Source: Psammoneis japonica
Taxonomy: Eukaryota
Direction of reading: 5' to 3'
DNA: 46,456 bases
NCBI GenBank assembly: GCA_008632985.1
Contig: QPGO01000223.1
Coordinates: 62,001 to 108,456, forward strand
A model generated the notes under the pieces. It saw only the letters and a list, made by a program, of their open reading frames with translations, searched no databases and had not been told where the DNA came from. Position numbers and translations under genes: made by a program. Shown in pieces: positions 10,271-31,403 of this stretch (position 1 is the stretch's first letter; every line of letters starts with the position of its first letter).

Positions 10271-10687
10271 ATGACGAACGATGCTACTTTCACCATGACG
10301 GGACAGCGTGTCGCCTTTGATGACGAACGGGTGGACGAGGTGATTATGGGACAAAAGGTTCTCATGAACCATTTGGCGAAAAACGAGGCGCCGGTGATTG
10401 GTGGAACGACGCAAACGTCCACCGTTTACTTTGCTCTACAACAGGCGGTCAAGGGTCTGAAAATGATACAAAAGACATGGCGAGGCAAAATTGGGCCCTT
10501 TACCATGGAAGTCGTTTTGGGAGATTACGAAGCGGGAGACCACAAGTTTACCTTTGAACCAAACAAGGTTCCTGATGGGTTTTTGGAACGTGGGCTTTAC
10601 AAGCAAGTTGTGCAATACTTGGACAGTCATGGCAAGGTGCTTCTCGAGTATACCAGTCACTTTCGTATTGTCAAGAAGAAGAAATAG
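10271..10687 (+). CDS. Rho GDP-dissociation inhibitor-like protein (Ig-like domain only)
   Basis: VKGLKMIQKTWRG...VVLGDYEA...FTFEPNKVPDGFLERGLYKQVVQYLDSHGKVLLEYTSHFRIVK parallels the RhoGDI C-terminal pattern VSGLKY.Q..YRKG...MVGSY.P...P.GMLARG.Y...F.DDD...L...W...IKK. Confidence 0.75.
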   Translation: MTNDATFTMTGQRVAFDDERVDEVIMGQKVLMNHLAKNEAPVIGGTTQTSTVYFALQQAVKGLKMIQKTWRGKIGPFTMEVVLGDYEAGDHKFTFEPNKVPDGFLERGLYKQVVQYLDSHGKVLLEYTSHFRIVKKKK

Positions 10688-12206
10688 TTTCATGAGGGGC
10701 AGTGCAAACGTAGTTTCTTTTCTCCGTCGGAAACTCAGGGAGCGAAAAGCTCCTGTGCGGATGGCGGATCATATTCCTTTAGAGCTTAGCTTTTTCTTTT
10801 TATTTTAGGCAATGAGTTATTTTACCGAGCGATTTTACATTGGTGGATGCACTGGGCAAGTTAAAGCACCGCAATGGTGAGGTTAAGGTAGCTTGAATTT
10901 TGCGGTTTAACTTTTGAAGATTTGAGCAGAGGAACGTTGGCTTACAATATTCTTTTGCTATTTGGGCGCATGCTACTGCGAAGCAATGCATACTAAGTGA
11001 ATCTTCGATCAGTCCACAGCGTCCTCTATCTTCGTAACTTTTACCTTGAAACATTTTAGAAAAAAGGTCGGTTGGCCAAGCATGCGGCTTCTCTCCATAG
11101 TCTTTCGACATTAGACTACTTTTCTTTCTGTTTTGAAGACAGTTGCGGAGAAGGGAGAGCAGTATTAGCTGCAATTTTTCATGATGAACAGTGCAGACAA
11201 AAGGAAAGTCTAAAAGACAAGTAGGGCTAGTAGGCACCCTCCAGAGCTACTCTACTCTCTAGCTAGCTATCGTAGCATAGCGTTTCAAGTTGTTGAGCAC
11301 CATCCAATAGACCCGGAAATTCTTGCAGACATTTTGGGTTCGCGCTTCTTGTAGTCCGCGCGATTTTGCCATCGAGGGTCGGAGCGTCGAGGTCGGAGGG
11401 AGATTTTCAATTTCCAAACTTTTGATTGTATTGCGTGGTCGGTGTGGAGGAGTTTCAAGTAGCATGTGACAGGGCGCCAAACAACAAGGCTGTTCTTCTT
11501 TCCTCGTGTTCAATGAAGCCAACACTCCACCGTTGTTTCCGAGATGACGAAGAACAAGCTTGGGCAATTACAGAGCGTCAACTCGCAAGAGTTGCAAAGC
11601 CTCCAACACTGCGCGGCGACTTCAGCATCGCAGTCATCACCATGCTGCGTCCTTTCATACATCATCACGTCGATGAACAAGTCGACACATGTTGAAACTA
11701 GAGAATTCTGCAGATGTGGTCATTTGAGGCCAGCTGGGGACAGGTGTTTGAGTGGCTCATGCGCTCGGGGTCAGAAAACCAATTGCGCAGTGCAATGTGG
11801 ATAAATTTGATTCCAGTCGGATGATCCACATAGTCTGTCTTGAGTTGGAGGCTGTCGGTCATTGTCGATGACGTTGAGCAAGCTGATCGCCAACTTTGGA
11901 GATCCAAAACGGCACTCGGCGTGGAATGGTTTCGCACTGCACCTGTCACAATCGTACGTTTGTTTCCGTTTGATGTTCTGTCTTGAAAAGAACACTCTCA
12001 CAGCTTTTTTTCTCATTCGCCACAAAAGTTTCCTTTGTGTGCAACAATCTAATGGTTGTCCACAGGTGCCCCGCATCTAAGCGATTGCATGTTTCTCGGT
12101 GCTTCTCGGCAACGCACGTGCAAACGAATGCATGTGGACACATGTCTTGTGCACTTCTGCTGGCCAAGTCTCCGCTGCACCCTGCAGCTAGAACATGATG
12201 TGAAAT

Positions 12207-13433
12207 TTAGACAATGGGACATCCGGGATGCACAGGTGCAGCACTCTCAACAGACTCGGCAGCGGCGCTCGTCTCCTTTCCAACCACCCGAGCTGCGCGG
12301 CAAGCAAATCTTAGAATGAAGGCAAAGAACAGCACGAAGCTTGCGCAAACGGCAACAAGGAGAAAAATCTTCCAGCCGTCCACCTTGTCATTGGGATCTG
12401 GGAGAACAGCGAACTCGTGGCAGTCTTCAATTTCCTCTTTTCCACCAAGCACGTCCTCACCAATGGAACGGACACAAACTTCATGGACGCCTTCAGCAAG
12501 ACCGGCCAGAGAGACGTTAAAGCCGACCGTGATCGCTCCTTCTTGTGGTAGATCGTGGGTGAGATTGGCATTGGCGATCTTGTTGAACGCGCCACCATCA
12601 ACCTGGAGCTTCAGGCTTTTAAGAGCAGTTCCAATGAGATCGTCGATGATGTCAGGGAGAGCATCAGGGTCAGGAACAGAAGTGCATTTTCCTCCGTTTT
12701 GCAAAATGTCAATCATGTTGTTTGGCACCGGCTCACCACACTCATGAGACATGTCGCAGTCCACACTGTCGCCAATGGCAACCGTGTGAACTGTGGCTTT
12801 TGTTTTGCCGAGTTCCTTGGCTGCCTCTCGAATGGTTTCTTCATCTTCGTTGCAAAGCCCGTCCCCCGCAAAGACTGCAATGGTTGTGCCGGCAGTGTTG
12901 GAGGGATCGTGGACCAGTTCTGCCGCCGCTGTCAAGGCGTCAACACAGTTGGCACCGCCAATGGAGCAGCCATCTTCAATCCCCATCTTGATGTCTCGGC
13001 TCGTCGGAGGCTGCAGCGAAGTGCTGACGGTGGCAAAATCATCAAAGTTGATTACACTGGCCAGTTCTGCAGACCCATCTGAAGTTGCTTTATAGTGGAG
13101 TGCTTTGAAGAAAGCTTGAACGCATTCCAGGACAGTTCCGCAGTCACCATCCTCTTCTGTGGTGCTCTCAGACATGTCCATCATGTAAATGTACGAGACA
13201 TCTGCCTCGCCCTTTCCAACGCTCGTGTTGCCGAGGATGTTCACGTCCATGGCGTTTGGCAAGGTGGAGTTGACAGCAGGTGCCGCAATGCTCACGTTGA
13301 GCACAGCCCCATTCTCAAGATCCTTCATTTGTGGATGAAGCTCTCTCGTTTTGGGCTGAAAGGTGCAAAGACCTGCGGTGTCTCTGGCGGAGAGCAGAAG
13401 TGCTGCTAGAATGGTGGCAATGGATGGCTTCAT
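12207..13433 (-). CDS. Signal-peptide + von Willebrand factor A (VWA) domain + single C-terminal TM protein; ORF open but possibly hypermutated
   Basis: Signal MKPSIATILAALLLSA. MIDAS-like DMSES, GGANC..AL, IAVFAGDG and VHTVAIG. TM WKIFLLVAVCASFVLFFAFIL. ATG taken at 13433. Confidence 0.75.
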   Translation of the reverse strand: MKPSIATILAALLLSARDTAGLCTFQPKTRELHPQMKDLENGAVLNVSIAAPAVNSTLPNAMDVNILGNTSVGKGEADVSYIYMMDMSESTTEEDGDCGTVLECVQAFFKALHYKATSDGSAELASVINFDDFATVSTSLQPPTSRDIKMGIEDGCSIGGANCVDALTAAAELVHDPSNTAGTTIAVFAGDGLCNEDEETIREAAKELGKTKATVHTVAIGDSVDCDMSHECGEPVPNNMIDILQNGGKCTSVPDPDALPDIIDDLIGTALKSLKLQVDGGAFNKIANANLTHDLPQEGAITVGFNVSLAGLAEGVHEVCVRSIGEDVLGGKEEIEDCHEFAVLPDPNDKVDGWKIFLLVAVCASFVLFFAFILRFACRAARVVGKETSAAAESVESAAPVHPGCPIV

Positions 13434-13721
13434 GGTCACTCATTTGCCAGATTCGTTTTCTCTGCCATCACAAGAGGGAAAAGGCGGAGTTGAGCGCAAT
13501 GAGAATGTGCAGCGCATTTCAACAACTTGCAGACATTGATCCTTTCTGAAAGCACCAGGAACACAGGGTGGGCATCCTCTCTGTCTTTCTAGTTGGATGT
13601 GAAGTCGCACAATCTGCGAGATGTGTGACACTGCAAACGTGCCTTGTTTGTGATGGCACCCAGAGCAATTGTTGTTCTGCATCTGCGATCTTCTCAGTCA
13701 CGCTCAAAACAGAAAAGATGC
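13368..13721 (+). repeat. Direct repeat copy 1 (VWA gene 5' end plus upstream region), paired with 14761-15122
   Basis: Shared blocks include catcacaagagggaaaaggc, aatgagaatgtgcagc, acttgcagacattga and tctgcatctgcgatctt...gctcaaaacagaaaaga. Confidence 0.9.
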
Positions 13722-14760
13722 TGTCTGGCGCGGCGCCCACCTGCGGTGCGGGCAGTCTGCTCCCACCTGCTTTGGGGGGCCTGCAGCAATTGGTGTGTGT
13801 GGCTCCAGTGTCGGTCATGCATTGGAGTGTGATGCATGACACACTCTCTCCACTTGTAGAGAGCAGAGTGGCAGCAGTGTGTCATGCATCACCATGAAAC
13901 AATTGTGTGACAGCATGATGTTGATCCGCAATCTCATTTGTTCAGTCATGGTTGAGGTTGGCGCGCGCGCGCGGATGTGCAGCGTTGAGTCCATGCGTCG
14001 ACGCACCACGTGCACTTGGGACTGTCAATGCACCAGCAAACACCAGCAGGGTCGCACGGCACCGGTGCCGTACGACGCAGGCCGTGTGTTCCAGTGATGA
14101 GGGCAATTTTGCATCAGCAGCTTTTTTGATGTCCGTAATTTTGGTTGCAAGCAACTCATTTGAGAAGAAAGCAGTGGCGGCTGCTCAGAGGCTGGATGAT
14201 GTTCTTGCTGCTGTGCATCTCGGAACCCAGCTTTCATCCCGAGTCGGTGTGTTGTGGATGCGTTCCAGCTCCACTCTAGGTGGGACCTCGCACTGCTGCA
14301 CTGTGCGACATCAATGGTTTTTTGGATCGCGTCGCATGTCGCGCATGCACATTTCTGCGTGTCACATTCTACGAAATTGTTTCATGCTCCCTGTTTTGCG
14401 AAGCCAAAGGCTTTCTATTTTCAACGTTTGTGAGAATAAAAATGCGCTGGGCACATTCTTTAATGTCTGAAGAATGCACCCGGGCAAACTGTCAATGATG
14501 CACTGCAAGTGTGAAGGAGGAGATGCATTCGCAAAATTGCCTCTTTTTCTGTTGGCGATCATTTGTCTTTCCATTGCAGCATGAATTTACTACGGAGCTC
14601 GCACGTAGAATTCTGCCGCCAAAGGTGAATTTGCTGTGTTGCTCATCTTTCATCTCTCACTTCAATGAAGGGCTGGATCAAAAAGCAAAATCAGCAGCAG
14701 CACTTGTTTTTGTTGATCTTGCAAAGCTCAGCTTCCTCATTGCTCTTTCTTTGCTGCACC

Positions 14761-15122
14761 AAGACCTGTGGTGTCTCTGGCGCAGATCAGAGGTGCTTCT
14801 AGAATGGTGTGGCAATGGATGGCTTCACATGGTTGTTTGTTTGCCTGATTTGTTTTCTTTGTCATCACAAGAGGGAAAAGGCAGAGGAGAGCACAATGAG
14901 AATGTGCAGCACATTTCAATGACTTGCAGACATTGACCCTTTCTGCAAACACCACCCAGGGGCACAGGGCAGGTGCCCTCTGTCTTTCTCATTCGATGTG
15001 AAGTCTCACAATCTGCAAGACATGCGACACCACAAACATGCCTTGTTTGTTGTGGTGTTTGGAACAATTGTTGCTCTGCATCTGCGATCTTTTCAATCAT
15101 GCTCAAAACAGAAAAGAGATGC
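14761..15122 (-). pseudogene. Decayed duplicate of the VWA gene 5' end and promoter (repeat copy 2)
   Basis: Aligns to 13368-13721 with many CpG transitions, CA/TG swaps and small indels. Confidence 0.85.
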
Positions 15123-15171
15123 CGCTCGGTGAGGCGCTCCTGGCTTGGGGGGTCCACTCTCAGCAAAAACA

Positions 15172-15778
15172 TTGAAAATGCTCAAAAGAGTGGCTCAAGA
15201 TCATTTTGACCGCATGTTTTAAACAACAAACCATCTTGCCAATCAAGAGGCACACACAACACAACAACTCTCAAGTGCAAAGAGCTGCTCAGCAGCATGC
15301 TTGGGAGTGCAAAACATGTTTCTCACAAGCCAAGAGGGCACAGCAGTTCTGTGAAGGGGGTGCCAATGACTGAGGATCTGTTTTTTTTTACAATTTTTAG
15401 CTCCAGCAACTCAAGCTCACAAAATGTGTGGTGGCACAGTTGTGCCCTCATTGCACTTGTTCTCAACAAGAACAAAGATTTGCAGTTTGAAGCTCTGCTG
15501 GCAACTCACAAGCCTGATGGCGGATCGCACAAACCCAAACCACTCTCAGCGAAGATGGTGAAAATGCTCAAAAGAGCAGGGCTCAAGATCATTTTGATTC
15601 CCGCCAGACATTTGACAACAAGCCAGCTTGCCAATCAAGAGGTGCACACAAAGCACCTGTTGAGAGTGTGAAGAGCTGCCTTGTTGGCATGCTTGGGAGT
15701 GCAAAACATGTGCCTCAATCCATGAGGAGGGAACAGCAGATCCATGAAGGTGGGCGCCAATGACTGAGGATCTGTTTT
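15172..15778 (+). repeat. Two diverged direct repeats of ~215 bp (15172-15385 and 15559-15778)
   Basis: Shared tgaaaatgctcaaaagag, gctcaagatcattttga, cttgccaatcaagagg, gcatgcttgggagtgcaaaacatg and gccaatgactgaggatctgtttt. Confidence 0.85.
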
Positions 15779-16822
15779 GCTCCCTGCATTCCTCAACAAC
15801 AGACACTCACATGCTTTTCCTCTTCCACATGGCAAGCATGTTCCAAAGTTGTGTTGCAACAAAAGAGCTGTGTTTCCCCCCTCAACTCAAGTGGAGAGGG
15901 TTCGACTAAAATGGAAAAACTGCCAGCAGACGGGTTCCAGTCCTAGGTGGGACTTTTTGTGACATTTGCCCCGTAGAATTCTACGTGCGAGCTCTGTAGT
16001 TCGTACTCTGGTTAATGCATATATTTATCTTCGAAAACGGCCAAGTTTGTAGTACATCTATTCCTGTTCGTACTCGAAGTTTTGGATAATACGCCTGCCC
16101 TACGCCATTCTTAAGACACTCGAGAATGGCGTAGAAGAAAAAAATATTAAAAGTTGTTCAATGGATAGCCTGATAAATGTACTATAAAATCATACAAAAT
16201 TTCGCCAAAATCACGTAGAAATGTACGTGCGCGACATACGACGCGATTCAAAAAACTATCGATGTCACAGTTCAGTAGTACGAGGTCCCACCTACTAGAC
16301 CTGGAACGCGTCAGCAGGGATCGATCATGAAATGAAAGCTGATAACTTCAAGGGGAAGCATGGCACAAGTCACATCGCAACGCAACGTTTTGGTTTACAT
16401 GGATTGGATCAGAATCGGAATGAACTTAATCATGGACATATATTTTTCTAATCTTATATCATTATTCAGGTTTGTATGTATGATTTTTGACTGATCTTTC
16501 GAAAGAGGCAAAAAAATGTGGTGTGCAACTTGAAACTGCCGTCGCTGCCAACATGCGCTTGATACCATGTGAACACAATGAGTTTGGAACGGTATGATAG
16601 ACAGCACCTCCCGCCACATGGCGTCTGGATCTAGTTTTTGTGTTGAGTCTCTCATTTGCCGTTGTTTTCAGAAAAGATGTTTCAATCGTGTCAAAATATG
16701 GAGTCCCGACAAATCCTGGTCGCGGGACTTACGGGTTATGCACCTCCATTCACATTATTTCACACATCCAAAAAAGTTGCGTTAGTTGTACTCTGTGTGA
16801 AAATCTCAAACCAGAACACACC

Positions 16823-19800
16823 ATGCAGCGTGGAGGTGACATGTGGTTGCTAGTTCGCAGGGCGGTGGCTTGTGCGCTTTGTCTGTGCCGATTGGCTAGG
16901 GCGATTGCGCTCCCATCATCGGAGCTTGTTTTTCATCGGAAGGCGGCTCTGGGTGACTTTGAAGAGTTGAATCAGCTACTACGCAATGCAGTCATTCGAC
17001 TCCCCGATCTGCAAGTGTCCAAGAATCTCATCACAATCGACATTACGAACCTTAGGTGTCAAGGTTTTCAAGTCGGAGATGTTCTGCTGAATGCCAATCG
17101 CGACGCAAGTCGAGTGTTGACTCTTGATGTTGAGGTGCAAGACCTCGATTTGAGTTGTTACTTTGATTATGAGTACAGAACCTTTGCCTTTCGTGGATCA
17201 GGGAGTGCCAATGTGTTTAGCTCGGAAAACGACGCAAATCTCATTGCACGGTTTTCTTCCAATGGGTCGTCTTCTAGTCTCAATTCGGTTCCAACCGAAG
17301 CGAATACAGAGTCCTGTGACCCTCGAGTCAACATCGATGACTTGAATTTTGAGGGAGGTATTTTGGGTATCGTTCTTGATCGAATCGAAAGTATGCTTCG
17401 TGGCACTCTGGAACGCCAAGCGGAGGAGTTGATTTGTGATAAACTGACTGAAATGATAACTACGGGCTATGTCAAGGATTTTTTGAACCTGGCAAAGGAG
17501 ACTCTTTCCCAGTATACTCCTGACTTAGCCTTGATGGACCCGTTGAATGCAGAGCGTGAATTGAAGCCTCCAAAGAATGATTCGCAGCTACTCAATTTCA
17601 GGCGCCAAGAGACAGACGTGGGATTATGGCTCGACAAGGCGTTGAACGAAGCATTTCTCTATCTTGGAAAGCGAGTAGAGATCGGTAATGGCGACGAGAC
17701 CGACATGAACGTCAACGTTGTCCTTCGCGACAGTTTCCTTCAAAATGGAGCATTTAATTTGGATGTATCTGATCTTTCACTGACCGATGGAGTGCTATGG
17801 AGCGGGCACGATAGACTCAGCGAGACCACGATTACGCTGCAGAAAGTACGGCTTGTTGGTCTTGATACGTTCACCAAATTTGATCCGTTGTTGCGAATCG
17901 GCAACTACACGTTTCAAAATCGCCTTTCATGGGATGAATTGTTCTTTGAACTTGATATTGTGCTGGACATAAAACCGTCGAGCCTCGATGATTCCATCAT
18001 TGAGATTCCTGGTTCAGCTAGCATTGTGGAGAATGTGAAAGTTAAGTTTGGGGTCCAGCATCTGCAAGCGACTGCGTCCTTTCTTCTCGCTATCGATCAA
18101 CAAGCTCTCCAAGACGTGAGGATTGGGTCCTTGTTGAAGAAGGATTGGGTGTTGCCTTGCTTTTTTTCGACGATTTTTCGTTTTGAAATGTCGGGATTTG
18201 CCATGGATGCTGGAAACATTGTTGCACCAACAATTCAAGGCTTTGTGTCGCCAGGCATGGATCGACTAGTTTCAGGTTTCGCCGATTCAGCATTTCTAAT
18301 GTACAAGGATGCATTGCTTGAATCTATGCCAAGTTTTTTCCAGACAACTCTTCGAGATTTGATTAACGAAAAGGCCGCGGAGCAAATCAAAACATACAAA
18401 GAGAACAGCGGTTGCCCAGTCGCAAGAGGCACCCTTTCTGATAGAGAGTTTGTCGATTTTCGAGACCTTTTGCTTTCAAGTGAGCCGTACGGAGACTCCA
18501 TTTCTACCGTTCTTTTACCGTTGCTTCAGGATAATGTGATTGCAAACGACGAGGACGGATTTCCAGCGTTGAATTCGCGCCTGATTCGGCCTATTACAAA
18601 GCTAAATTCCGGCGAAGAAGGCACTTTGCGTTTTCCGTCGGACTTGTTTCATTATGTATATGAAGACTTTGACGGGCGTTGGTGGCCCATGTTGGAGAGG
18701 TTCGAGCTCCGAGTGTTCAATGTCACGATTCGAAACGTCGATACTTTCGTGGAGCCACTTTCGGTTCTGGATCCGACTGGAGCAAATACTGTTGCGAACG
18801 AGGTCAACCTTGGGTACGCTTCCTCACCTCCTCTCAATGTTACAATCTCTCTTCGTTTGTCATTGACTGGGAGCAACGATTCGCCACTAAACTTTGAGAA
18901 TGAATTGGATATCAGTTTGGCATTGCCCTCTACGTCTTGCTTGCTTGACGTTTTTGCAAAAGTGCAGGAACGCGCCTTTCTTGACATGCAACTCAAGAAC
19001 GTCGCCAGTCCGAGTTGCTGGCTTGCGACTATTCCATATTCTGGGTCGGAAACACGGCTTACCATGTCGAAATTTGCGTTGAGTCTCGCTTCTATTTCAT
19101 TCGGCGCAAAATGCACTTTATGCCCGGGTGCTGGTGAAGCTGCCCTATCAGAGATTCTTGAGGTCCTTGATGAGGCTGGAATGGCGACCACACTTCTTGG
19201 ACACGTTGAAGAGACTACTGGCGACATGGTGTGGGCTTTTTATGACAGTCTAAAGATTGACGAGAATCTGAGTGCTGCGCCCAGGCTGTGTCCTAGTAAT
19301 GCTGAATACGACCCTACCGCGGTTCCGATCTTGAGCGAATTTATTCCTCCAAGAGCTTCAATCGAAGCGCTGTTAGCTGCCTGTGCGCTCGCGGTCGAAT
19401 CATTTGCGATTGCAAGTGCAAAGAGCCATATCTTGAGGGCTCCAGAACCTTCGGACCCACTTTCCACACAAGCTTCATTCGTGATCCCTGATGGATACCG
19501 AATTCTTGATTGGTCAAATCTTGGTGAATACCTTGGCGATTGGGCCGACGCAGCTATGGACACCGCTAGGCGATACCTCGGAGACGTTGTCGAATCCCGA
19601 GATGGAGAAGGCACGACAGACCTTGGCGCAAACGTTTTGCTTCGGGGCTCGCTTCTCAATGAAGATGGCGTGCTTGAAATTCCTCTCGAAAGAATAATCT
19701 TTGAATTCGCTGGCTTGAATTTCGAAGCAACAAGCGTTCGAATCCATGGGCTGGATTCTATTTCGAAAGTCCACGCGCTTGAACCGATAGCGAATCAGAC

Positions 19801-22800
19801 GCTGCAGAGCCGGTTTGAGTTTCAGAGCCTACAGATGCTAGTTGACTTTGATATCACAAATGCTCAAGATGTTTCTCTCTTGCGTCGTGCTGTCGATACT
19901 ACGACTCTCTCAATCCGAATGAGTGACATTCTTTTGGATTTTTCATTTCTACTTGCTTTGGATATGAACAAACTTGAGCAGCTGGAGATAGGATCTGTTA
20001 TGAGCGTCAAGAAACTTGTGGATTGCTTTCTATCAGTAATTCACAAAATAGATGTGACTCAGTTGACGGCATTTGTTGGCGAAGTCGAAAGTCTGAAGGT
20101 TGACGGCTTTCTCTCCCCTGAGCTTGCATCATCATTGGAGCCGCTGTTGAAAGCTCTGAATGATTATTTTGGCACTGAATTGATCGATGCGATGCCTCTG
20201 ATAACTGATAGCACCCTCCGTGTCCTGATGAATGGCATAGTTCACAGCCTGGTTGACATGAACTCTGATTACATTCCGATTCGGGGCGAATCCTTTCCGG
20301 GATTCGTTGATTTCCGTGACTTACTGCTTCCTGAAGTTTTGTCTTCAGACTATGGTGGTAGCGGAAACTCTCCATACGGCGATGTTTTTCGATCTGTGTA
20401 CAGCCAGATGAGCGAGCGGCTGCTGAGTACCGATGGTGATGATGCGATCGGGATCAACGGCTTCTTGGGATCATGGACGAAAGGACTTTCCAACAAGACT
20501 GGGTCAGTATCCTATGAGGGGGATTTGGTAAATACAACGGCTTCTATCAAGGTTGGGGGCTTAGATGCCAACCTTGAAATCAAGTTATGGGATGCCCACA
20601 TTGAAAATTTGGATTCTTTTGGTGCTCCACTTGCATTGATGCAACCTGTTTTCGGTCAGCCCAACTCGCTCAATAACAGTTTGTCATTCGGTGTTGGCCC
20701 CACGCCTCTTCGGCTTGCGGCAAAAATCATGGTGGGCTTATCAGACAATGGTGAGTTCATTAGTAGTACATTGTAAACCTTCTTTGCTTCCTTATATTCA
20801 CGTTGTTTTTTCGTTTCCGCGAAGCTGACTTACGGATTCGAAATGAACTCGATATACGTCTTGATTTGGGCTTCGTTCGAGTTTTCCTGAGCATCATGTT
20901 GAGAATAGCCGAAGCGCCGTTCCTTTCTTTTCCGTTGCGAGACATTTCGAATGCCCACTGTTGGCTTGCAACCATGTTTGCCAAGCCATACCAAACCCAA
21001 ACTGAACCAGAAAGTTGGGATTATGCGAGTGTAGCAGTCAACGACCATTCCGTTTCTGTTGATCACCTCGACCTGAACGCTTCCTGCATCTCCTGCACGA
21101 GTCCTGACTTTGACAGATTGATTTTGCAGTTGTACTCGTTTGAAGGAAGTGACAACGCAACAAATCTCGTCAACAATGTACTAATGCAAGTAGGCCGCGT
21201 CGTCGACAGCGACTTCTTCAAAAAAAGATTATTGGACGATGCTTCGCGCCAATGCCCCCATCATCCTGCATATGACCCTGATGCAGCTTTTCAAGACCCC
21301 TTGTCGAACCCCGCCGAGTTTTTTGGATTTGAGGACAGTGGTCGCGATAAGAAGTCGCTCTATTTCACAGTGGCAAATGCAATTTTTGCTGCGGGACTTT
21401 GCTTCCTTGTCATTTTGTGGAGGTTTGTCATTCTTCGGCGATGGAATCAGAAGCGGCTCGGCTCGCTTTCAAGCGAAGACGCGATAGTCCTTGCTGAGCA
21501 GCAAAGATTAGAGAGCGACCTTGAAGTGAAGCTGATCGATTCCACTTCCTCAATGTTCCAAAGTCCCAATTTCCCGCGTCATGTGCGATTTCTGGTCCCT
21601 TTTGTCTTAGTTATGGACATTGGCCTGTACCTTGGAGGTCACTTGGGCGTCATTTCCAACGTTAACATTGCCGCTCGCGTTGCTGGCGAGTCCATTTTCG
21701 TGAACCGGTTCCTCGACTTTTCTTTCATTGGATCAACAGCAAGGACGTACGAAAACGGCGGAAATGAGCTTGCAGTTCTTGTTTTCATCTTTTCCGGCTT
21801 GTGGCCCTACCTCAAGTTGGTATCTAGCCTCGTATTGTTCTTTCTACCACCAGCGAAACTTGGTGTGTCAAAACGAGGGACGATGTTGCTTTGGCTTGAC
21901 GTTTTCTCAAAGTTATCAGTCGTTGACATATTCGCCGTCCTGCTGGCCATTGCAGCGCTTCTCATTTACGTTGGTGGCCCAGACGAAAGATCTTCGAACG
22001 AAGGCGAGCCTTTCTATGTCAAGTTAGTGGTCGTACCACGGGGTGGGTTCTACTGCCTTTTAATCGCACAACGTATTTCTCGGATAAGCTCCCGTTTTCT
22101 TTTGGACTATCACAGGAAAATCGTTGATTTGGGTACCCGTGAATACAATAATACCCGTTCTAGGCATGTCGTTGACCTGGGACTTGCCTCAGCCACTACG
22201 ATGGACGCCTGCGAGACACTTCCGGAAATGTCACAGCTTGACAATGACTATGATGCTGCAGAGTCCCAGACAACTGTAAATCGTCGGGGTCTTCAACTTG
22301 AGATCCACGAGAACACCTTTGCTGACGAATACAACACGGTAGACGCATGGAACAGTTGCCGAGCGATCAAACCAAACGACAAATCAAGGGGATTGTTTCG
22401 GTTGAGCGGGCGGTGCCGTCGATGCATTTCAGTTGGTGGCACAACCGGTTTAGTTTTGACCGGTTTGACAATCTTGAGCCTCGGCATTATCGGTGCGATT
22501 CTGGCACCAAGCATTTCTGTGGAGACAAAACCGCTTTGGGACGTCGTTGAGTCTGGAAACACGTATGAGGAAGCCGTGACGGATTATACTGTGTTTAGAA
22601 TTGTTTGCCTGGTACTGCTACAGGCAAGATTCATCTTGACCAGTGCAACTGACTACATTGGTCTTGGCTTTTTGCTTGTAGTGGCAATCACGTCTGCTGT
22701 TCTGTTTCCGTTGATGCAGTTCTTTTCCTCCGTTCGGCGATGGTGGAAGACGAGAAAGAACCAGGTACAAACAACCATGTCGAACCGCGAGACGAAGCTT

Positions 22801-23976: not shown

Positions 23977-26308
23977 GGGTGCGAGCAATGCCGAGTTTGC
24001 CGCTGCAAGAGTGGATCCAAGAGCCTTCATGGCTCAAAGAAAAGTAGATTTCAGAATGCAGCACATGACATGAACGACACAAACACTTTGGCCGCGTGTC
24101 GCGTGAGTCAAGGAACAATAAAGAAGCTTCATAGATCGCAGCTGTAGCTCAGAGGTTGTAATAGAATTGTTGCTGTTGACAAAAGTATCGTTAGAGAAAT
24201 TATGGCTACATAGAAACTGGGGATCGACCAACAATCATTTCTTGGAGGAAAGATGGACTTGATGACCATGCCTTTGACACAGTGACTCTCCCTTTCAAAC
24301 GGAAGAGCCACCAGCCAGACAGAGTTGCATGTTGCCTAAAAGAAGCAGGGATTTTTCTGAAGACTTTCCAGCAGCACAGAAATCACTGCCAGGTGAAGCA
24401 ACGTCACAAGCCAATGGAAGAAGCCCAATGTTGCAATGTTGCACAGCAATGAAAACACTGAGGGGCTCTTTGGCCATTTTAGCTGTGTTTCTTTTTGCAG
24501 CCACAAGCCAGCAATGTGCTTGACAATGTCGCAAAATGGCATGTGCTGTTTTGGACAAAACAGAGTGCTGTTTTCATCAAATTCATTCCTCACATTTCGC
24601 TGCATTGCTGTTATGCACACCCTCATTGTTGCTGTTGCACAGTGAGCAAAACATCTCAGAGCCATGTGGTGCTTCCAGCTGCCTCAGCACCAACTCAGCA
24701 CACCATGTCATCCAACATCTCTGTGAGGTGTGCAAGCACATTTTGTTGCAGCCAAAAGTGGCCAACAACTCAGTGCAAAACTGCCAAGGCAGGTTTCTCT
24801 TTGTTGTGCCACACAAAGTGGCTTCCACCTCAGTCTTTCCATGGCCTTGGATTAGCAAGGAGCTGGCTCCATCTCACAAGAGCTCCTCTCAGTTGTTCAA
24901 AGTCCTCAATTCTCAGCAAAAGAGACAGAGGTCAGCAATGGATTCTCACAAACCACTTTGGAATGAGCAACTTTGACATGGTGCTGCCAACGACCTCTGC
25001 AAACTGCAAAGTTGTGTGGGCAATGGTTTCAAGTGAGAGAAGCATCCTCCATGTTGAAAACAGAACAAAAGTTTTTGACAAAGGTCAGCTCTGTGCAAAC
25101 AAAACATGAACATCTTGCTCTTGCAAATGCCCCAACTTTTAATTTGCTTTTGCAAAAGCTCAGACCCCATGGCAGCAAAGTGGTGGTTGCTTTTTCAGAA
25201 CCTTCTCTGCTGCCTTTGGCACAAGACACAAGAAATGTGGCCAGTGTGGCCAGCTCATGGGAGGTGGTTTCTTGGACTCTCTTTCCAGCTACATTGTCTG
25301 GCCCTGTGGGCACCCTTTGAGCTCTCACTTCTTGAACCTTTCCAGCTTGACACATGAACAAAAAACCTTGGCAAACAAGAAGCCATTGTGGCTGGGCAAC
25401 AACTTGCTCCACAATTGCAACAATGAGAAAGCAGCTGCTGCCAAGAAGAGAAAGAGCACTTTCAATCAGTTGCAGGAAAATGTCAAGCACTGCCCACCCC
25501 TCATCTTGCATCTGCTGTTGCTGCCAGTTTGTTGCATGCCTGTTGCACTTTTTCCTCTCTGCCTCACTCTCAATCACAATGCTTGCAATTTTTGGGTGGC
25601 AGTTTTTCTCATTCAGAGCACAGGCTCAAATGGAGAGCAACAGGAGAAAATGTTGAGGCATTTGCCAGCCACCCAGAGCTTTTGACATGGCCAGCATGTG
25701 CACACACACACATGCACACATTAGATTTTGCTTGAAAGCAGCAGTGCACATGGCTGAACAGCAATTGCCTTTGCTTGAAAACAGCACGCCAGCCACTCCA
25801 ACATGGCTTGGGGCAAACCAAAGTGCAGCGCTCACAGAGTTGACAAGTTGGCATGGTGATGTGTCTGTTTCATGGACGTGAAAGATGAGAGCATGGTGTC
25901 AAGAGTTGAGTTCACAACAAAATTTTTAGCAAACCCAAATGCTTGCATTTTTAACATTTCATGGCTGCCATGTGGAGATGCCAGTTGTCATTTTTTGAAT
26001 CATTGACAAATTCTGTCTGCTCATCTGTCCTCTGTGAATTGATGCACTCATCATTCTGGGGGACGTCTTTGGCTGGAAGTGCAAGACTGTTGAAAAACGT
26101 TACACAGAATTTGTGCTGAAATTGTCTGTCAATCAGTGTGATTGGGGCATTTGGGAATGCTGGACAGATCATGTGCAGGGTTTTCCAATTGCAAAATTCT
26201 GCACAACAAACAGTTTGCAAAACAAGGAAGATGGTTTAAAAGCAACCGTCAGCCCATTGTCACTGTTGTCTGTGCTGTGTTGTGCCTCAAGCTTCCACGT
26301 GTGACAGG

Positions 26309-27640
26309 GGGGTCAAAACCAACTGTTTGCCTCTGCAAAAAATGCTGGGGGTCACAAATGTGTCGACTCAATCTGTTGAAAGTGGACATTGAAATGCAAA
26401 AGTGTGGATTTGGTGTGCTGCCACTGCAAGAGGAACAGCCCCCCAGTGCTTGAGCACGACACTTTGTTGGTTGCAGATGTTGCAAGACTGCTCTGCTTGC
26501 AACTCACATGTGGGCACCACAGTGGAACACATGCAGAGCTTGAGCCCCTGCATGACTGTGGTCACATTTGGCACTTTGTGCACCCTGCACAGACCCTTCA
26601 TGTGTGCAGTGTGTGACACTTGCATGGTGGCCAGCAGTTGCGCCATGACTCATTGCTGCATGGAACTCCTGCAGCCCATTGCAGGTCTTGCACCAGGAGT
26701 CACTTGTTTGACGTTTGTCAGTGCAGCACACTTTTTTGCATGATCAGCATTGCTGAAGACAGCCTGCAGATGCAGGAAAGCATTCTCACTGACAAGCCCA
26801 GGTTTGTGCACAGCAGTTGCTCCCATGTCAAGGTCAGTCAAGTGACAAGCACAACCCAGCACCCTGCTTCTTGTGGTGCACACAAAGAATGCCATTGTCA
26901 TTGAACTTGAAGCACCGTGCATGTCCTGAGTCTTTTGTCCTTTTGCCCAGGTCCTGATGAGCTGATGAGCATTGTCATCACGTGTGTCTTTGTTTCAATG
27001 TGATCGCAGAGTTTGTTTTCTCACACAACACTCTTTTTATCTTGCCAGGAGCTCCATTTCTCAGTGCAACATGCCTCTGCACTTAGCACAGAACTCCTGC
27101 AGCCTGTTGCAGGTCTTGCAACAGGAGAGTCATGTTTCTCAGCATGATGCACTTCTGCATGATCAGCATCACTGTGGACAGCCTGCAGATGCAGGAAAGA
27201 AGCAGCCCAGCTGCCAAGTCCAGGGTTGTGTGCTGCACAACACCCAAGGGGGCGCTGTCCTGCCAACAAGAAAACAAGGCTTCAATTCTCCCAAGGACTC
27301 TGTGATGCTTCAGCAACATCTTTTAGAAATGGGTCATTGACCAAAGGGTTCGACAACAATGTTCTTTGCAAGCACTGCTCAGTTGTTCAGAGCTTGTTGC
27401 CTTGGCTTGGCTTGACCACCCCCACCCCTTGGCAACCTCCTGCCAAGAACAAACAACCCACCAGACCTCTGAAGAGTTCTTGTGGCTGTCAAGAGGCAAC
27501 AATGTGACCTGCAGAATTGACACAGACTGACATTGTCAACTCAATCATGTCCTTTGTTTTTTCAGCTGCTGTGACCACAGATTGTCCTTGGTGCAGACTG
27601 CAACACATGCAACAACACTCTGACAACAACAATCTTGGCA
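26309..27640 (+). pseudogene. Decayed 3' fragment of the methyltransferase gene (copy A), split by an ~860-bp insertion (~26395-27255)
   Basis: tgcaaaaaatgctggg...tctgttgaaagtggacattgaa (26334-26393) and tctcccaaggactctgtgatgcttcagcaacatcttttagaaatggg...tttgcaagcactgctcag...gtggctgtcaagaggcaacaatgtgacc (27261-27640) align with 29691-30160. Confidence 0.85.
26664..27198 (+). repeat. Two diverged direct repeats of ~110 bp (26664-26780 and 27092-27198) within the insertion
   Basis: Shared aactcctgcagcc..ttgcaggtcttgca, tgcatgatcagcat and gacagcctgcagatgcaggaaag. Confidence 0.85.
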
Positions 27641-29029
27641 GCTGCATGTTGTGGAGCTGAAAAGACACACAAGTGTGGTGTGCTGACAGCAAGCAACACT
27701 TGGCACTCTGTGGTTGCTGTCAACAACAACAAAGAGAAAGCCCTTCAACAGCAAAAAAAACACAACAGCCAACCCAGCATTGTCCCTGTGGACAATGTCA
27801 CAGCATGTTCTGTTGGTTTCTCTCTTTGCCACAACTGCTGGCTGCTCTTGAGAAGAGACAACACACTCTTCTGTCCTGCACCACCCTGCAATGCCAACAC
27901 CAGTGCTGAGAGCCAATCCATTGGATCCTCAAACAAGAAGACAAAAGAATGTGGTGCAACACAGCATGCCCTGCCAGCACACACATCCCTCCAAAGCAAC
28001 CCTCGTTTTGTTCTTGGGAAGCCATCAAAAGTGTCCCTTTTCAATTTTCTCATCATCATGCAGAGCAGCAGCAAGCACAAAGCACTGCACAACAAAGCAG
28101 CTTCAGAAAATGATGTCAAGCCAGTTCTCACTCAGTGGCTCAATGCATGAAATCAGCGCCAAGACTCTGCAGCACTGATGGACCATGGTGTGGTTTGGGA
28201 GGACATGTGTGGAAAAATTCACATCCCCCAGTGGGACAGTGGGAATGACAGACTGCAAAGCAGAGCAAAAGCAAGTCACACAGGTGGGTTTTCAAGGGGA
28301 AAGTGGCATGTTGGGTGTGAAGTTTTGCAGCGCACCAAAGAAGTTGGTTTGCAAGGGACTTTTGGTGACGGCAATGCCAAGGCTCTGGAGGCCCCATTTT
28401 TGTGCGTGCAGGGTTGGTGGTGCGACGACAGGTGAGGCCAAAATGGGCCAAAGTTGTGTTGGTCCAGGTGGCTGAAGCAGCAGGAAAAATGCCTGCAGGA
28501 GAAAGCTGAGCATCAGCAAAGGTGGCACACACTGAAGACTCAGACGATGTCCAAGGCGGGACGAGGCACTGGGAGTGGGCACTCTTGATTGGCGGTGGTG
28601 CTGAAAAGGAGACGGCAAGCAAAACACCCATGTGCTCCATCCAAGATGATCAACGGTGAACGGGGTGAGATGGATGTCGGCTTGAAGAAACAACTGTTGT
28701 GCCGTGTTGCGCGTCTCGTGAGTTTGTGCCAAAGGCGGGCAAGAAATAACACATCGGCGCCGACAGGTGGTGGTGTGTGCTCAGTCAGTGCTGTGACCTC
28801 GTTTTCCGTTGCCACTTACAGTAACGGCATCGCCAAAAATCTGGAAAAATTTCATATCATCACGAAGATAAATCATTGTAAAAACCGTTATCTTTTGAAA
28901 AAACAAGGGATTTTCAAATCAAGAGAGAGTTGATCTGCGTCTGTGATCTGCGAAAAACCAACGAAGTCGTGATTGTACCAGTATCATAATAAAAAGAAGA
29001 ATTCGTATCGAAACCTGAAACAGCACATC

Positions 29030-30022
29030 ATGCGATCGCGTCAACATTCGCTGCTTGCCAGATCATTGATGCTGTTATGCGTGGCTGCGGCAATCGCAAC
29101 TCTGACAAATTTGACAAGTCGCGTCGATGTCTTTGTAATGCGCAAGAATCATGATGAGAAACGCTTTTCCATTGACGAAATCCCCTCAGAAGAACGTCAT
29201 TCTCTTTGCACCCAGAATCCGTACGCTCCCTCGATGAACAAGTCACTTGTAGACATTGCCCGTGGAGCTCATGATTGGCTCGAGTTGCTTCCCAGGCACC
29301 TCAACCGAGCTAATTCTACCAGCATGTCACAGCATACTCACAAACGATTCTTTCCATTTGAGCCCCTAGCTACCTGTGAGCAATCCTGCATTGGTGGACC
29401 GTGCGGAGACGATAAGAGTAAAATCATGTGTGGCATCGAAAGGTTGCGGGAAGGATGCATTGTATACTCGATTGGGGGCAACAATCAATGGCAGTTTGAA
29501 AATGACTTGCTGAAGAGAACGCCTTGTGAAATTCATACCTTTGACTGTACGGGCAATATCAAGAGATTTAAGAAACCCGACAATAGTCGCTTGAAGTTTC
29601 ACCACATTTGTCTTGCTGATACATCCGTGCCTGCCCCCCAAAATTGTAGTGGGACTAAAGTTTGCGGCGAGATGATGACTATTGAGGGTATGCAGAATAT
29701 GCTGGGTCATGAACGCATCGATCTACTGAAAATGGACATTGAAGGCTTTGAATGGCCCATCTTTGAGTCGTGGCGTACGATTTTAAATGACACGAGGAAG
29801 GATCTTGTGCTGCCATTTCAGATTCTTGTGGAGGTTCACTACAGGACACAATTCAAGGAACTGTTTCACGCCAACAAACAAGACTTCAAGTCTCCCAAGG
29901 ACATTGTGATGCTTCAACAACATCTTTTACAAATGGGCTACGTGACTGCAGTACGGGATGACAATATCTTTTGCAAGCACTGCTCAGAGCTTACTTTGGT
30001 TCGGTTTCAATGTTCCAACTAG
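29030..30022 (+). CDS. SAM-dependent methyltransferase, Methyltransf_22 / METTL24-like, with N-terminal signal anchor
   Basis: CIVYSIGGNNQWQFE, CEIHTFD, IDLLKMDIEGFEW and QILVEVH motifs. N-terminal hydrophobic LMLLCVAAAIATL. Normal TA/CG content. Confidence 0.88.
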   Translation: MRSRQHSLLARSLMLLCVAAAIATLTNLTSRVDVFVMRKNHDEKRFSIDEIPSEERHSLCTQNPYAPSMNKSLVDIARGAHDWLELLPRHLNRANSTSMSQHTHKRFFPFEPLATCEQSCIGGPCGDDKSKIMCGIERLREGCIVYSIGGNNQWQFENDLLKRTPCEIHTFDCTGNIKRFKKPDNSRLKFHHICLADTSVPAPQNCSGTKVCGEMMTIEGMQNMLGHERIDLLKMDIEGFEWPIFESWRTILNDTRKDLVLPFQILVEVHYRTQFKELFHANKQDFKSPKDIVMLQQHLLQMGYVTAVRDDNIFCKHCSELTLVRFQCSN

Positions 30023-31403
30023 AACCTGTCAAAAATGAAGAATCCAGATCTGACGAGTTGCGGCTGTCGATACGCAACAGTGTGACCGGCAAAAGTAAAC
30101 TAGACTACCAATCTTAACTTACGACTAAGACATCTCTATTCTGACAACACATTCTTCTATAGCACATAATCTTACAAGGTTTACTACACTGGTTAGCCGC
30201 AGCATCAACGAGAGTACAAGCTATGGCACGACGGCTTCGCGTCATGGTTGCTGTCGTGGGAGAGGCCACTTGCAGGGCCGCCGATATATCCTTTGGGGAG
30301 ACTGTTTTGGACCCGAGCATTTTCTTTAATGAAACAATCCCGACTTTTTGAGAGAGTGCTGGACGAGTTTCAACTACGTGTGGGCCACAAAGTTGGGGGG
30401 CTCATCTGTTGCACCTTTGACATTCCCCATGATGACACTGCAGCCCAGCCTGCCTTAGATTTAGAAAAAAAGCACAGAGTGGTGAAGTGCTGTAAAAAAA
30501 TGGGTGATGCAACCAAAATCTCAGACAATGATCAAACATTTTGTCACAACACAAATGCACTCAAAGGTTGTTTGGGCATGCCAATCTTCTTGTTGAATGC
30601 AGACAAAGCTCTCAGGATGTTTTCAGAGCCACTGTTGTGGCAGCACAGCTGGGGCAAATGTTGGTGGATTGGACCCCAACAGCAGCCTTGCTTTCTTGAT
30701 CAACCAACCAAACTGGCCCACACATCTGTGTGAGTGAGGACCAAATGCGCAACTCCCCTGCCAGCCACTGTGTCTGTCTTTGGTGAGTGAGGAGGTGCTG
30801 CACAATCTGATGATGCAAATGCCAACACATGGCGCCAGTTGGAGATGGTCTGTGGTGGGTCAGAACATGTCCAACTGGGATGCAGGTCTCAGCACTTGCT
30901 CTGTGCTCTTCTTGCTTTCTTGTGGATCAGAGGACAAGCTCTGGGCAATTGAAACAATCAGATGGCTCACTCACCTGAAAATTTCTCACTCACCTCTTGA
31001 TGTGTTGCCAGCACTCACTTGAAACTGGCAACACCCCCCCCCCAGCATTTTGTGGTGCTGCTGCTGCATTGACAAGCAAAGAAACAAAAACCAAAACAGG
31101 CAAGTCAGTGCACACATTCAAGAGACTTCTCCCCCCTGAGCTTTTTTGCTCCACAGGTGCTTGGTTGATCAGATCCTCACTTTGATGAGATTCATCTGAT
31201 CCGTTGTCAGAGACCAAGACAAAGGAGAGTGCAATTTTTCTTCAGGAACAAATGACAAGTGGCAATGGCAGCTGCAGCCAAGAACCCATCTTGCACTTGG
31301 TCGTGCCATCATTGTCAACAAAAAATTGAAAAATTCAATGAATGAAACAAGAAACCCATGACCAGTTGTTTGCAAGGGAGAAAAGTGATTTGACCAACAA
31401 AAT

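Follow-up and report, generated by a model that had tools for sequence, protein, structure and literature searches.

A VWA gene of the cell-surface adhesion type from the diatom Psammoneis japonica was found to lie inside a 4.4-kb domain from which most TpA dinucleotides are missing, and the likely explanation is that this nuclear gene sits within reach of a local process causing, specifically at TpA and on either strand, A:T>G:C transitions (TA>TG and TA>CA). This reading is built on the domain itself with its edges and composition, on two repeat copies that carry TA on one side of a domain edge and CA or TG on the other, on a deficit of TpA at the synonymous sites of the gene and on a unique Ala at the MIDAS Thr column of its product. 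The window analysed, meaning the whole stretch of DNA presented here, is 46,456 nucleotides in length, and all positions given are those of the window.

The VWA gene and its predicted protein

The gene is located at positions 12207 to 13433 of the minus strand and consists of a single exon encoding 408 amino acids, as identified from its ORF, its homologs and the predicted structure of its product. The ORF starts with ATG and ends with TAA, and an in-frame GTG at 13439 would extend the product to 410 amino acids. Two antisense ORFs, of 177 and 175 amino acids, overlap the gene. The predicted layout of the protein comprises a signal-peptide-like N-terminus, a small beta-sandwich, the VWA domain (approximately residues 79-267), a beta-sandwich (residues 269-343), a transmembrane helix and a short tail, with the helix (approximately residues 353-380; positions 12294 to 12377, minus strand) being predicted from the secondary structure of an AF2 model and from a hydrophobic stretch in the alignment.

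Comparison with eight close homologs showed 40-52% identity, and seven of these eight carry precomputed PF00092 or PF13519 assignments. The window protein alone scores 17.6 bits against Pfam VWA (cutoff 23.8) and 19.4 against VWA_2 (cutoff 27). A Rossmann-like VWA fold is supported by Foldseek, for which the top matches of the AF2 model (pLDDT of 75.9 overall and approximately 80-93 over residues 80-260) were VWA proteins with a probability of 1.00 and E-values down to 8e-13, and the family profile matches the VWA domain of CLCA1 with an E-value of 1.6e-8. The family members recovered share the same architecture, the one named being from the diatom Grammatophora.

In the contigs of one sequencing run of one sample, which may be the source of the assembly itself, the gene stands at the depth of its flanks with one contig spanning it, and it was therefore taken to be single copy. 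No second VWA copy was found with tblastn within the window, and a metagenome scan for DNA of homologs returned one locus of 30% identity, too remote to serve for comparing codons. Taken jointly with the mutational reading given above, it is likely that the gene is of host type and single copy, and that its product would be a single-pass membrane protein with a predicted extracellular VWA domain.

Depletion of TpA in the gene

The composition of the ORF given in the first-pass annotation was reproduced, with 408 amino acids, 3 Tyr, 14 Cys, 9 His, 11 TpA and, for the CpG described there as plentiful, a count of 63. These correspond to a TA o/e of 0.16 and a CG o/e of 0.73. The density of TpA is 9.0 per kb compared to 29.8-52.4 per kb across the remaining 11 genes of the window, while GC content is 52.7% compared to 43.0-49.7%. 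Resampling the codons of the same protein 5000 times with the codon usage of these 11 genes gave 48.7 +/- 5.4 TpA with a minimum of 31, and none of the 5000 samples had 11 or fewer. The VWA gene thereby has a z value of -7.0, and those of the others range from -5.5 to -0.2. Junctions at which a codon ending in T meets one starting with A (T|A) were found at 3 of 108 positions in the gene. The corresponding figure for the other genes is 272 of 1610.

That TA>TG or TA>CA cannot produce a stop from a sense codon, as had been argued, holds true: no stop codon contains CA, and TGA can only arise from TAA, which is already a stop. Such a process creates no new stops and can thus rewrite genes without truncating them.

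The TpA-depleted domain

The domain holding the VWA gene was delimited to positions 11461 to 15906 by log-odds segmentation and 250-bp bins. Its 4446 bp contain 36 TpA (o/e 0.13), with TG at an o/e of 1.50, CA at 1.71 and CG at 0.63, while the undepleted remainder of the window has a TA o/e of 0.56 and a CG o/e of 1.04. GC content is raised in the domain (50.1% versus 46.1%). Depletion reaches the same level in the non-coding flanks within the domain (25 TpA in 3219 bp) as in the gene itself (11 in 1227 bp). The depletion is regional with sharp edges at 11461 and 15906, and is not a habit of codon choice.

Depleted segments in the window number three by segmentation and four by 250-bp bins, all with sharp edges, a TA o/e of 0.06-0.13 and a TG/CA o/e of 1.5-1.8. 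In the other depleted domains erasure of TpA is coupled with loss of CpG. In the domain described here, 250-bp bins show that CpG has not decayed over the VWA gene, and the CpG-poor part (0-6 CpG per 250 bp) is found at positions 14500 to 15906, between two copies of a repeat, with single-copy depth over 14587-15953. Low complexity of the CAG-repeat type was considered as a source of the CA and TG richness and was rejected, the depleted sequence being complex and non-repetitive. Among 133 stop-to-stop ORFs of at least 70 amino acids in the depleted domains, no Pfam domain, be it of a transposon, a virus or otherwise, was identified above cutoff, with three sub-threshold matches attributed to chance; foreign DNA is therefore no more than a candidate trigger of the depletion.

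Repeat copies and the direction of change

A short repeat of very high copy number was identified by contig depth and alignment at positions 14198 to 14626 (minus strand), inside the domain, in a form from which TpA has been erased. Its inverted partner, found by self-alignment and depth at 15962 to 16376 (plus strand), lies just outside the domain, the domain edge at 15906 marking its inner border, and is rich in TpA (25 within 16001-16250). Summed contig depth of this repeat is 36,000-80,000, compared to approximately 62 in the flanks. Along the well-aligned arm of the repeat, each of the seven TA of the outside copy has CA (3) or TG (4) as its counterpart inside the domain, and CG is kept at 10 of 13 sites. 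Over the full repeat, 14 of 30 TA have become CA or TG and two are kept; these old copies differ by other types of substitution as well.

Self-alignment further revealed a direct duplication of approximately 350 bp. Copy A (13368 to 13718) comprises the 5' end of the VWA gene (approximately the first 22 codons) and the region upstream, and copy B (14761 to 15117) is not followed by the body of a VWA gene. The copies are 82% identical at the nucleotide level and 93.5% identical in a purine/pyrimidine code. They differ by eight CA<->TG doublets in 386 bp, in comparison to three in 1123 bp of a paralog pair of normal TA content, and over the same 386 bp this non-coding duplication has accumulated 17 transversions as well as several indels. 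In another depleted domain, a pseudogene fragment derived from the neighbouring methyltransferase gene shows TG (6) or CA (1) at 7 of the 14 TA sites of that gene to which it aligns, with one TA kept. An inverted paralog pair at 39.2-42.4 kb (1.1 kb, 75.6% identical) was found not to be TpA-depleted. Self-BLAST in purine/pyrimidine code confirmed the known repeats and otherwise returned mostly noise.

The MIDAS site and candidate replaced codons

The minus strand at 12959-12945 reads GGC GGT GCC AAC TGT, as reported in the first-pass annotation. Within it Ala161 (GCC; 12951 to 12953), which follows GGT, occupies the position of the MIDAS Thr according to the homolog and family alignments, where a change of ACC to GCC would be a change of TpA to TpG. 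The proposed loss of this Thr is borne out by the alignments: all eight close homologs have Thr here, as do 115 of 128 non-gap family rows (Ala in one), and the window protein has Ala. The same column aligns to GGT of CLCA1 and GST of TgMIC2. Members without Thr do exist, as 13 of the 128 rows lack it. The Thr of MIDAS is one of three side chains that directly bind the metal in the open, high-affinity state (PMC2887854). It is probable from these alignments that a single rewrite of TA removed a metal-binding Thr common to nearly all relatives.

The remaining elements of the site are intact. The DxSxS motif (D86-M-S88-E-S90; 13164 to 13178, minus strand) is kept, its positions being D in 138 of 139, S in 140 of 140 and S in 137 of 139 family rows, and so is the MIDAS Asp191 (GAC; 12861 to 12863, minus strand) in AGDG, with Asp in 144 of 145 rows. 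With both DxSxS and Asp191 in place, Ala161 has probably weakened or retuned ligand binding and not abolished it.

A second candidate, also put forward in the first-pass annotation, is Ala186 (GCA; 12876 to 12878, minus strand) within IAVF (ATT GCA GTC TTT; 12881-12870), where GTA to GCA would be a change of TpA to CpA and where Val is found in all eight homologs and in 123 of 144 family rows. The best candidates for replacement would be Thr161>Ala and Val186>Ala, with ancestral codons that are assumed, the best homolog being 52% identical. Further replacements may include Ile84/85>Met, Tyr156>Cys and Ile214>Thr. Met84 and Met85 (ATG ATG; 13179 to 13184, minus strand) face Ile or Val in the close homologs, Ile being found in seven of eight at each column, with ATA>ATG as one possible path. 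Theirs is a weaker case than those of Ala161 and Ala186, given that transversions from ATC or ATT could have led to ATG just as well and that 20 of 139 wider rows have Met at the second column.

The supposed loss of a Tyr next to the Thr (GGTNY) did not hold up, as every one of the nine aligned sequences has Cys following the Asn. Nor can the Cys and His counts be read as evidence of Tyr to Cys or His change, most of these residues being shared across the family, with 9 of 14 Cys and 3 of 9 His family-invariant; only Cys156 of the 14 Cys faces Tyr in homologs (three of eight). Orthologs sharing GGANC and a similarly low Tyr content, which would speak against the proposal, were not what was found, as the homologs have GGT and contain 1.3-2.9% Tyr compared to 0.7% here. 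Two of the 11 surviving TpA sit in the family-conserved codons of Tyr81 and Tyr83 (TAC ATT TAC with Ile82 between them; 13186 to 13194, minus strand), Tyr81 being present in eight and Tyr83 in seven of eight homologs. Tyr codons offer no synonymous way out of TA.

Conservation of the protein

The description of the gene as recoded stands with regard to loss of TpA across the gene, but its effect on the protein was overstated. The protein departs uniquely at 12 of 124 conserved columns (9.7%), and the eight homologs do so at 5-20 columns (4.1-15.7%). It is no more diverged than its homologs, which argues that rewriting was mainly synonymous. The expectation that differences concentrate at ancestral TpA is borne out in part: 4 of the 12 departures fit TA>TG/CA against a null share of 2-4.5% (P of approximately 1e-4 to 1.5e-3), but with Met84/85 set aside this becomes 2 of 12 (P = 0.057), in a test that was devised post hoc and draws on 12 columns. 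The other eight departures are not of the TA type and include Tyr283>Phe, a transversion. When TG and CA were reverted to TA class-wide and scored against the homologs, the non-synonymous sites at which similarity rose numbered 15 of 87 and 4 of 35, in comparison to 24 of 75 for CG>CA, and this reversion test did not separate TA>TG/CA from the other mutation classes.

Alternative explanations

The deficit of TpA might require no special process if it stemmed from codon usage, or from UpA being selected against in an mRNA with high expression, leaving Ala161 and Ala186 as ordinary substitutions of the lineage. Every gene of the window is indeed short of TpA (o/e 0.42-0.76), significance was not reached in the class-wide reversion test, and some family members have no Thr. 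This is nevertheless very improbable, given that 3.2 kb of non-coding sequence on both sides of the gene is depleted and ends abruptly at 11461 and 15906, that the repeat copies carry TA or CA/TG according to their side of the domain edge, and that the z value of -7.0 lies beyond the -5.5 reached at most in the 11 other genes. Similarly improbable is that the whole 4.4-kb block is foreign (a virus, the cargo of a transposon or another organism) and was poor in TpA on arrival. The block does contain repeat copies and rearranged duplicates, and the hypermutated regions of Bigelowiella natans are integrated viruses (bioRxiv 10.64898/2026.01.13.699255). Against this, the inside repeat belongs to a very high-copy family of the genome, and TA has been retained by its partner at a distance of 1.3 kb, which indicates that the change happened in place. 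Copies A and B have also resolved the same sites differently, as CA in one and TG in the other, so these changes are later than the duplication, and members of the VWA family, including that of Grammatophora, have the same architecture.

A different explanation is that the gene was already dead, drifting neutrally in silenced chromatin and remaining open only since TA>TG/CA makes no stops. A process of this kind inflates ORFs in every frame, and retention of TpA in the gene, at approximately 26% of the level of other genes, is near the approximately 19% of the flanks. A MIDAS ligand has also been lost, and the 5' end and promoter region have been duplicated and rearranged nearby. Yet the 12 of 124 unique departures fall inside the range of the eight homologs, and for this reason no relaxation is visible; the nine Cys that are invariant in the family have all been retained, as have DxSxS, Asp191 and Tyr81/Tyr83; no frameshift has occurred in 1.2 kb while the nearby non-coding duplication gained indels and transversions; and CpG has not decayed across the gene. 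A dead gene is accordingly considered unlikely, although less so than the two explanations above.

Proposed process and its significance

Under the preferred reading, of a local TpA-directed process acting on a host gene, approximately 30-38 TpA would have been erased within the VWA gene. Most of this erasure would be synonymous, as xTA>xTG and, where two codons meet, as NNT|A>NNC|A, since selection would have preserved the protein, and few replacements would have reached fixation. The trigger is probably the repeat-bearing, CpG-poor and likely silenced insert at approximately 14.2-15.9 kb, from which the process may spread approximately 2.7 kb leftward over the gene. The chemistry may, if it is like that of B. 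natans, be deamination of adenine in DNA.

A literature search that included diatoms together with TpA found no description of TpA-only hypermutation of DNA beyond the 2026 preprint on B. natans. A deep footprint in a diatom would extend such hypermutation to a second major and ecologically weighty lineage of eukaryotes, and would show two things that lay beyond the preprint, namely that erasure can become nearly complete (TA o/e 0.06-0.13) and that it can extend over a host gene which is intact, conserved and single copy. The VWA gene would offer a concrete case of collateral protein change, involving one codon for a well-understood metal-binding residue. Were the mutator reading true, this could be a source of cryptic functional change or of diversification in surface proteins. 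Depleted domains also inflate ORFs in all frames and hide transposon and viral proteins from profile searches, which is relevant to the annotation of diatom genomes.

Comparison with known systems

The window protein shares the VWA fold and aligned DxSxS...T...D positions with MIDAS VWA proteins (CLCA1, 6pyo; TgMIC2, 2xgg; ANTXR1/2; integrin I domains), but differs in having Ala for the Thr ligand, in that sequence similarity is remote and in that its family has so far been found in diatom-type sequences only. Its layout of signal, VWA, beta-sandwich and transmembrane helix presumably resembles that of ANTXR.

In repeat-induced point mutation (RIP) of ascomycete fungi, C>T change at CpA creates TpA and stop codons, enriches AT and leaks into adjacent single-copy genes. 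The process proposed here would resemble RIP in its regional, dinucleotide-specific transitions tied to repeats and affecting both strands, and in its spill into unique genes with alteration of proteins. The direction is opposite, with TpA destroyed, GC raised and stops impossible. As for the duplication that triggers RIP, a repeat copy and a duplication of 350 bp both lie in the domain, yet the 75.6% identical paralog pair is untouched. Hyper-editing of dsRNA by ADAR, with its preference for a 5' U, is discussed in the preprint on B. natans (bioRxiv 10.64898/2026.01.13.699255), and is similar in that A>G changes are clustered, have a 5' T/U neighbour and occur on both strands. ADARs are metazoan editors of RNA, whereas the change described here is fixed in genomic DNA at a single-copy locus.

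The closest likeness is to B. natans, in which TpA alone is reported to be mutated, the strand deciding whether TpG or CpA results (Mettrop et al., bioRxiv 10.64898/2026.01.13.699255). The repeat arm and the duplication doublets described here likewise show TA>TG/CA with other sites largely spared. That preprint reports that TpA clusters also hold unannotatable ORFs and some host-like genes (bioRxiv 10.64898/2026.01.13.699255). The two cases differ in that new mutations were observed in mutation-accumulation lines of B. natans, whereas the diatom window holds a long-term footprint only; in that the targets in B. natans are integrated giant-virus and virophage DNA, compared to a host-type single-copy gene beside short high-copy repeats; and in depth, erasure reaching an o/e of 0.13 in this domain and 0.06-0.12 in others, in comparison to 0.45 in the NCLDV region of B. 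natans. B. natans is a chlorarachniophyte (Rhizaria) and the host here is a diatom (stramenopile). An origin of the window from B. natans itself was considered and rejected, since its genes are long and intronless and their best matches are to diatoms only. It can be suggested, though only tentatively and with the balance somewhat against it, that diatoms share a targeted TpA>TpG/CpA mutator like that of B. natans, which would be old across SAR and would spill from repeats or silenced inserts into host genes, here stripping a MIDAS site of its Thr.

Gene content of the window

The window has the character of diatom nuclear DNA densely packed with genes. Among its long single-exon genes, Pfam identified those for SYF1, a P450, an FkbM-type methyltransferase, a K+ channel and a RhoGDI-like protein. 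The closest named relatives of SYF1 were all from diatoms (40-48% identity), and the sole named relative of the single-pass membrane protein with a VWA domain was from the diatom Grammatophora. A 1378-aa ORF lacking any Pfam match and a neighbouring PqiA-like 1057-aa ORF were found with tblastn to have a 159-aa stretch in common (18878-19321 and 20821-21285; 26% identity, E about 1e-10).

TpA deficit of the VWA gene

The ORF of the VWA gene (12207-13433, minus strand) is 408 aa long from its ATG, or 410 aa from an upstream GTG. Its composition was as given in the first-pass annotation (3 Tyr, 14 Cys, 9 His and 11 TpA, with plentiful CpG, here counted as 63), as were the codons GGC GGT GCC AAC TGT at 12959-12945 and ATT GCA GTC TTT at 12881-12870. 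The gene carries 9.0 TpA per kb at 52.7% GC, compared to 29.8-52.4 TpA per kb and 43.0-49.7% GC for the window's remaining 11 genes. When codons were redrawn from the usage of these other genes with the protein held fixed (5000 draws), 48.7 +/- 5.4 TpA were obtained with a minimum of 31, and no draw was as low as 11, placing the deficit beyond chance (z-score of -7.0, against -5.5 to -0.2 for the other genes). Every TA-bearing codon choice was rare, namely TTA/CTA for Leu (3/34 vs 99/674 in the other genes), GTA for Val (1/35 vs 64/415), ATA for Ile (0/24 vs 42/316) and T|A codon junctions (3/108 vs 272/1610).

TpA-depleted blocks

Counts in 250-bp bins with log-odds segmentation identified near-TpA-free blocks with sharp borders at 1281-2751, 11461-15906 and 24212-37092, the last enclosing a TA-normal island with the methyltransferase gene. 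The block containing the VWA gene (11461-15906, 4446 bp) possesses 36 TpA, with observed/expected (o/e) ratios of 0.13 for TA, 1.50 for TG and 1.71 for CA; TA o/e is 0.56 in the undepleted remainder of the window. Non-coding DNA flanking the gene on both sides within the block was depleted to the same degree as the gene, and the depletion belongs to this region of DNA rather than to the VWA gene as such. Across the gene, CpG stood close to normal (o/e 0.74), with 0-6 per 250 bp in 14500-15906 and near absence from the other depleted blocks, so that TpA loss is separable from CpG loss.

The blocks at 24212-28700, 30500-37092 and 1281-2751 consist of complex, non-repetitive sequence with o/e ratios of 0.06-0.12 for TA, 0.19-0.25 for CG and about 1.8 for TG/CA. 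No family matches were found with Pfam among their stop-to-stop ORFs of at least 70 aa (within a scan of 133 ORFs); a transposon, a virus or old duplicates are each conceivable candidates for the origin of the large blocks. Spurious long ORFs occur in several frames of TpA-erased DNA, for example 12214-12747 and 12555-13082 (both plus strand), and there are many in the depleted blocks, as the removal of TAA and TAG leaves TGA as the only stop. Such ORFs are a trap for gene callers.

Direction of change between copies

Sequencing depth was taken from contigs of one public run, possibly the assembly's own source. The region 10500-14303 was a single contig at depth 62, indicating that the VWA gene is single copy. 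Regions 14189-14622 and 15925-16358, with summed contig depths of 36,000-98,000, represent a short repeat of very high abundance, present here in two inverted copies (aligned pair 14198-14626 and 15962-16376; up to about 98,000 vs 62 in unique DNA), with 1.3 kb of CpG-poor DNA at single-copy depth between them. The right copy, rich in TA, is found immediately beyond the edge of the block, and the left copy inside it. In the well-aligned arm, all seven TA of the outside copy correspond to CA (3) or TG (4) inside, and CG was unchanged at 10 of 13 sites. Across the full length of the repeat, 14 of 30 TA had become CA/TG and two were kept, the remainder falling in poorly aligned stretches. Many variant positions across the repeat family are transitions, and the pair may belong to a MITE-like family or represent the ends of a non-autonomous element.

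Degenerate copies of the methyltransferase 3' end (36677-37044 and 27236-27385, vs 29691-30019), located in the two large depleted blocks flanking the intact gene, have TG/CA where that gene has TA or CG. The better fragment showed TG (6) or CA (1) at 7 of the 14 aligned TA sites of the gene; 7 of the gene's 12 CG sites also read TG/CA in this fragment.

The first ~22 codons of the VWA gene and its upstream region are duplicated 1.4 kb away, both copies lying in the block and differing by 47 transitions and 17 transversions. Eight CA<->TG doublets were found in these 386 bp, compared to three in 1123 bp of an inverted paralogous gene pair of normal TpA content (39199-40321 and 41293-42406; 75.6% identity across 1.1 kb). 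An ancestral TA resolved independently in two copies would give doublets of this kind, and the process therefore acted in place, after the duplication. The paralog pair also suggests that duplication at 75.6% identity does not draw the TpA process. Contigs of the run differed from the window by A against G at 14008, a T inserted after 14002 and one base deleted at 15381; all three lie outside TpA contexts and are probably assembly or strain differences.

Consequences for the VWA protein

Eight homologs (40-52% identity) could be aligned over the whole length of the protein, and a profile search returned 910 family representatives at E <= 0.001. An AF2 model (pLDDT 75.9) placed a VWA fold between beta-sandwiches, followed by a transmembrane helix. 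Cytoplasmic tails are variable, with an Ile-Val or Val-Val end in seven of nine aligned proteins, that of the window included (12210-12215; alignment with homologs P0001-P0007), which might serve as a C-terminal signal for sorting or export.

Columns of the metal site (MIDAS) were counted among 152 retrieved proteins (212 aligned rows). D86 (138/139), S88 (140/140), S90 (137/139) and D191 (144/145) are kept in the window protein. The Thr column (T in 115/128, A in 1), which the family profile aligned to GGT of the CLCA1 VWA domain (6pyo, E 1.6e-8) and GST of Toxoplasma MIC2, is Ala161. All eight close homologs have Thr here, in agreement with the proposed replacement; the Ala codon GCC follows GGT, and ACC>GCC would be TpA>TpG. 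Likewise, at the IAVF site all eight have Val in place of Ala186 of the window protein (GCA, which GTA would give by TpA>CpA). An open, high-affinity MIDAS is described as binding metal directly through two Ser and the Thr (PMC2887854).

Departures were defined as residues of the window protein that no homolog carries, in columns where at most one homolog deviates from the rest. Twelve were found in 124 conserved columns (9.7%), inside the homologs' own range (4.1-15.7%), and the description of the gene as recoded is thus overstated. Four can each be explained by one TA>TG/CA change (Ile84>Met, Ile85>Met, Thr161>Ala and Val186>Ala); the others comprise one CG>CA, two other transitions, two transversions (including Tyr283>Phe) and three requiring more than one change. 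As TA>TG/CA makes up 2.1-4.5% of possible non-synonymous single changes in the other genes, P is about 1e-4 to 1.5e-3, for few columns and a test picked post hoc. The two Met changes can be discounted, since ATC/ATT>ATG is possible and Met occurs in 20 of 139 wider rows at the second column; P is then 0.057. A broader test, in which every TG or CA was reverted to TA, gave no separation: homolog similarity was gained no more often than for other mutation classes. Pairwise identities of the window protein (40-52%) compare with 36-57% among the homologs; it is no more diverged than they are, which argues that synonymous routes account for most of the TpA erased (roughly 30-38).

The proposed loss of an adjacent Tyr did not hold. 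The Cys that follows Asn (TGT in the VWA gene) is shared by all nine aligned sequences, with Tyr in this column only in more distant family rows (25/129), and hence no Tyr was lost there. Nor can the Cys and His counts be taken as evidence of Tyr replacement, given that 9 of 14 Cys and 3 of 9 His are family-invariant; Cys156 is the sole window Cys with Tyr in homologs (3/8). The Tyr content is the lowest observed (0.7%), but is partly a family trait (1.3-2.9% in homologs). Tyr81 and Tyr83, two of the three Tyr, are family-conserved, and because no synonymous change can rid a Tyr codon of its TA, their survival would point weakly to purifying selection.

Origin of the depletion and comparison with known hypermutation

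The results support a TpA-erasing process having run over the VWA gene, through which the MIDAS Thr and the conserved Val were probably lost; the first-pass interpretation stands to this extent, while its adjacent Tyr, its Cys/His argument and its extent of recoding do not. Judged from sequence, the gene is most likely a still-conserved surface receptor gene that underwent collateral, mostly silent rewriting, with a putative weakened or retuned metal site. A putative repeat- or silencing-associated TpA mutator would be the source of this rewriting.

A literature search for TpA-only hypermutation returned no description beyond one 2026 preprint on Bigelowiella natans, and none for diatoms; the one apparent 'TpA' match, in a paper on diatom chromatin, proved to be the word 'Tpase'. 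As described in that preprint (bioRxiv 10.64898/2026.01.13.699255), mutation-accumulation lines of B. natans show hypermutation at TpA only, to TpG or CpA, with a rate of about 6e-7 per site per generation; the DNA affected is that of integrated giant viruses and virophages. The same TA>TG/CA change is found in the window, with the difference that in B. natans it is reported for integrated viral DNA and here it extends over the VWA gene.
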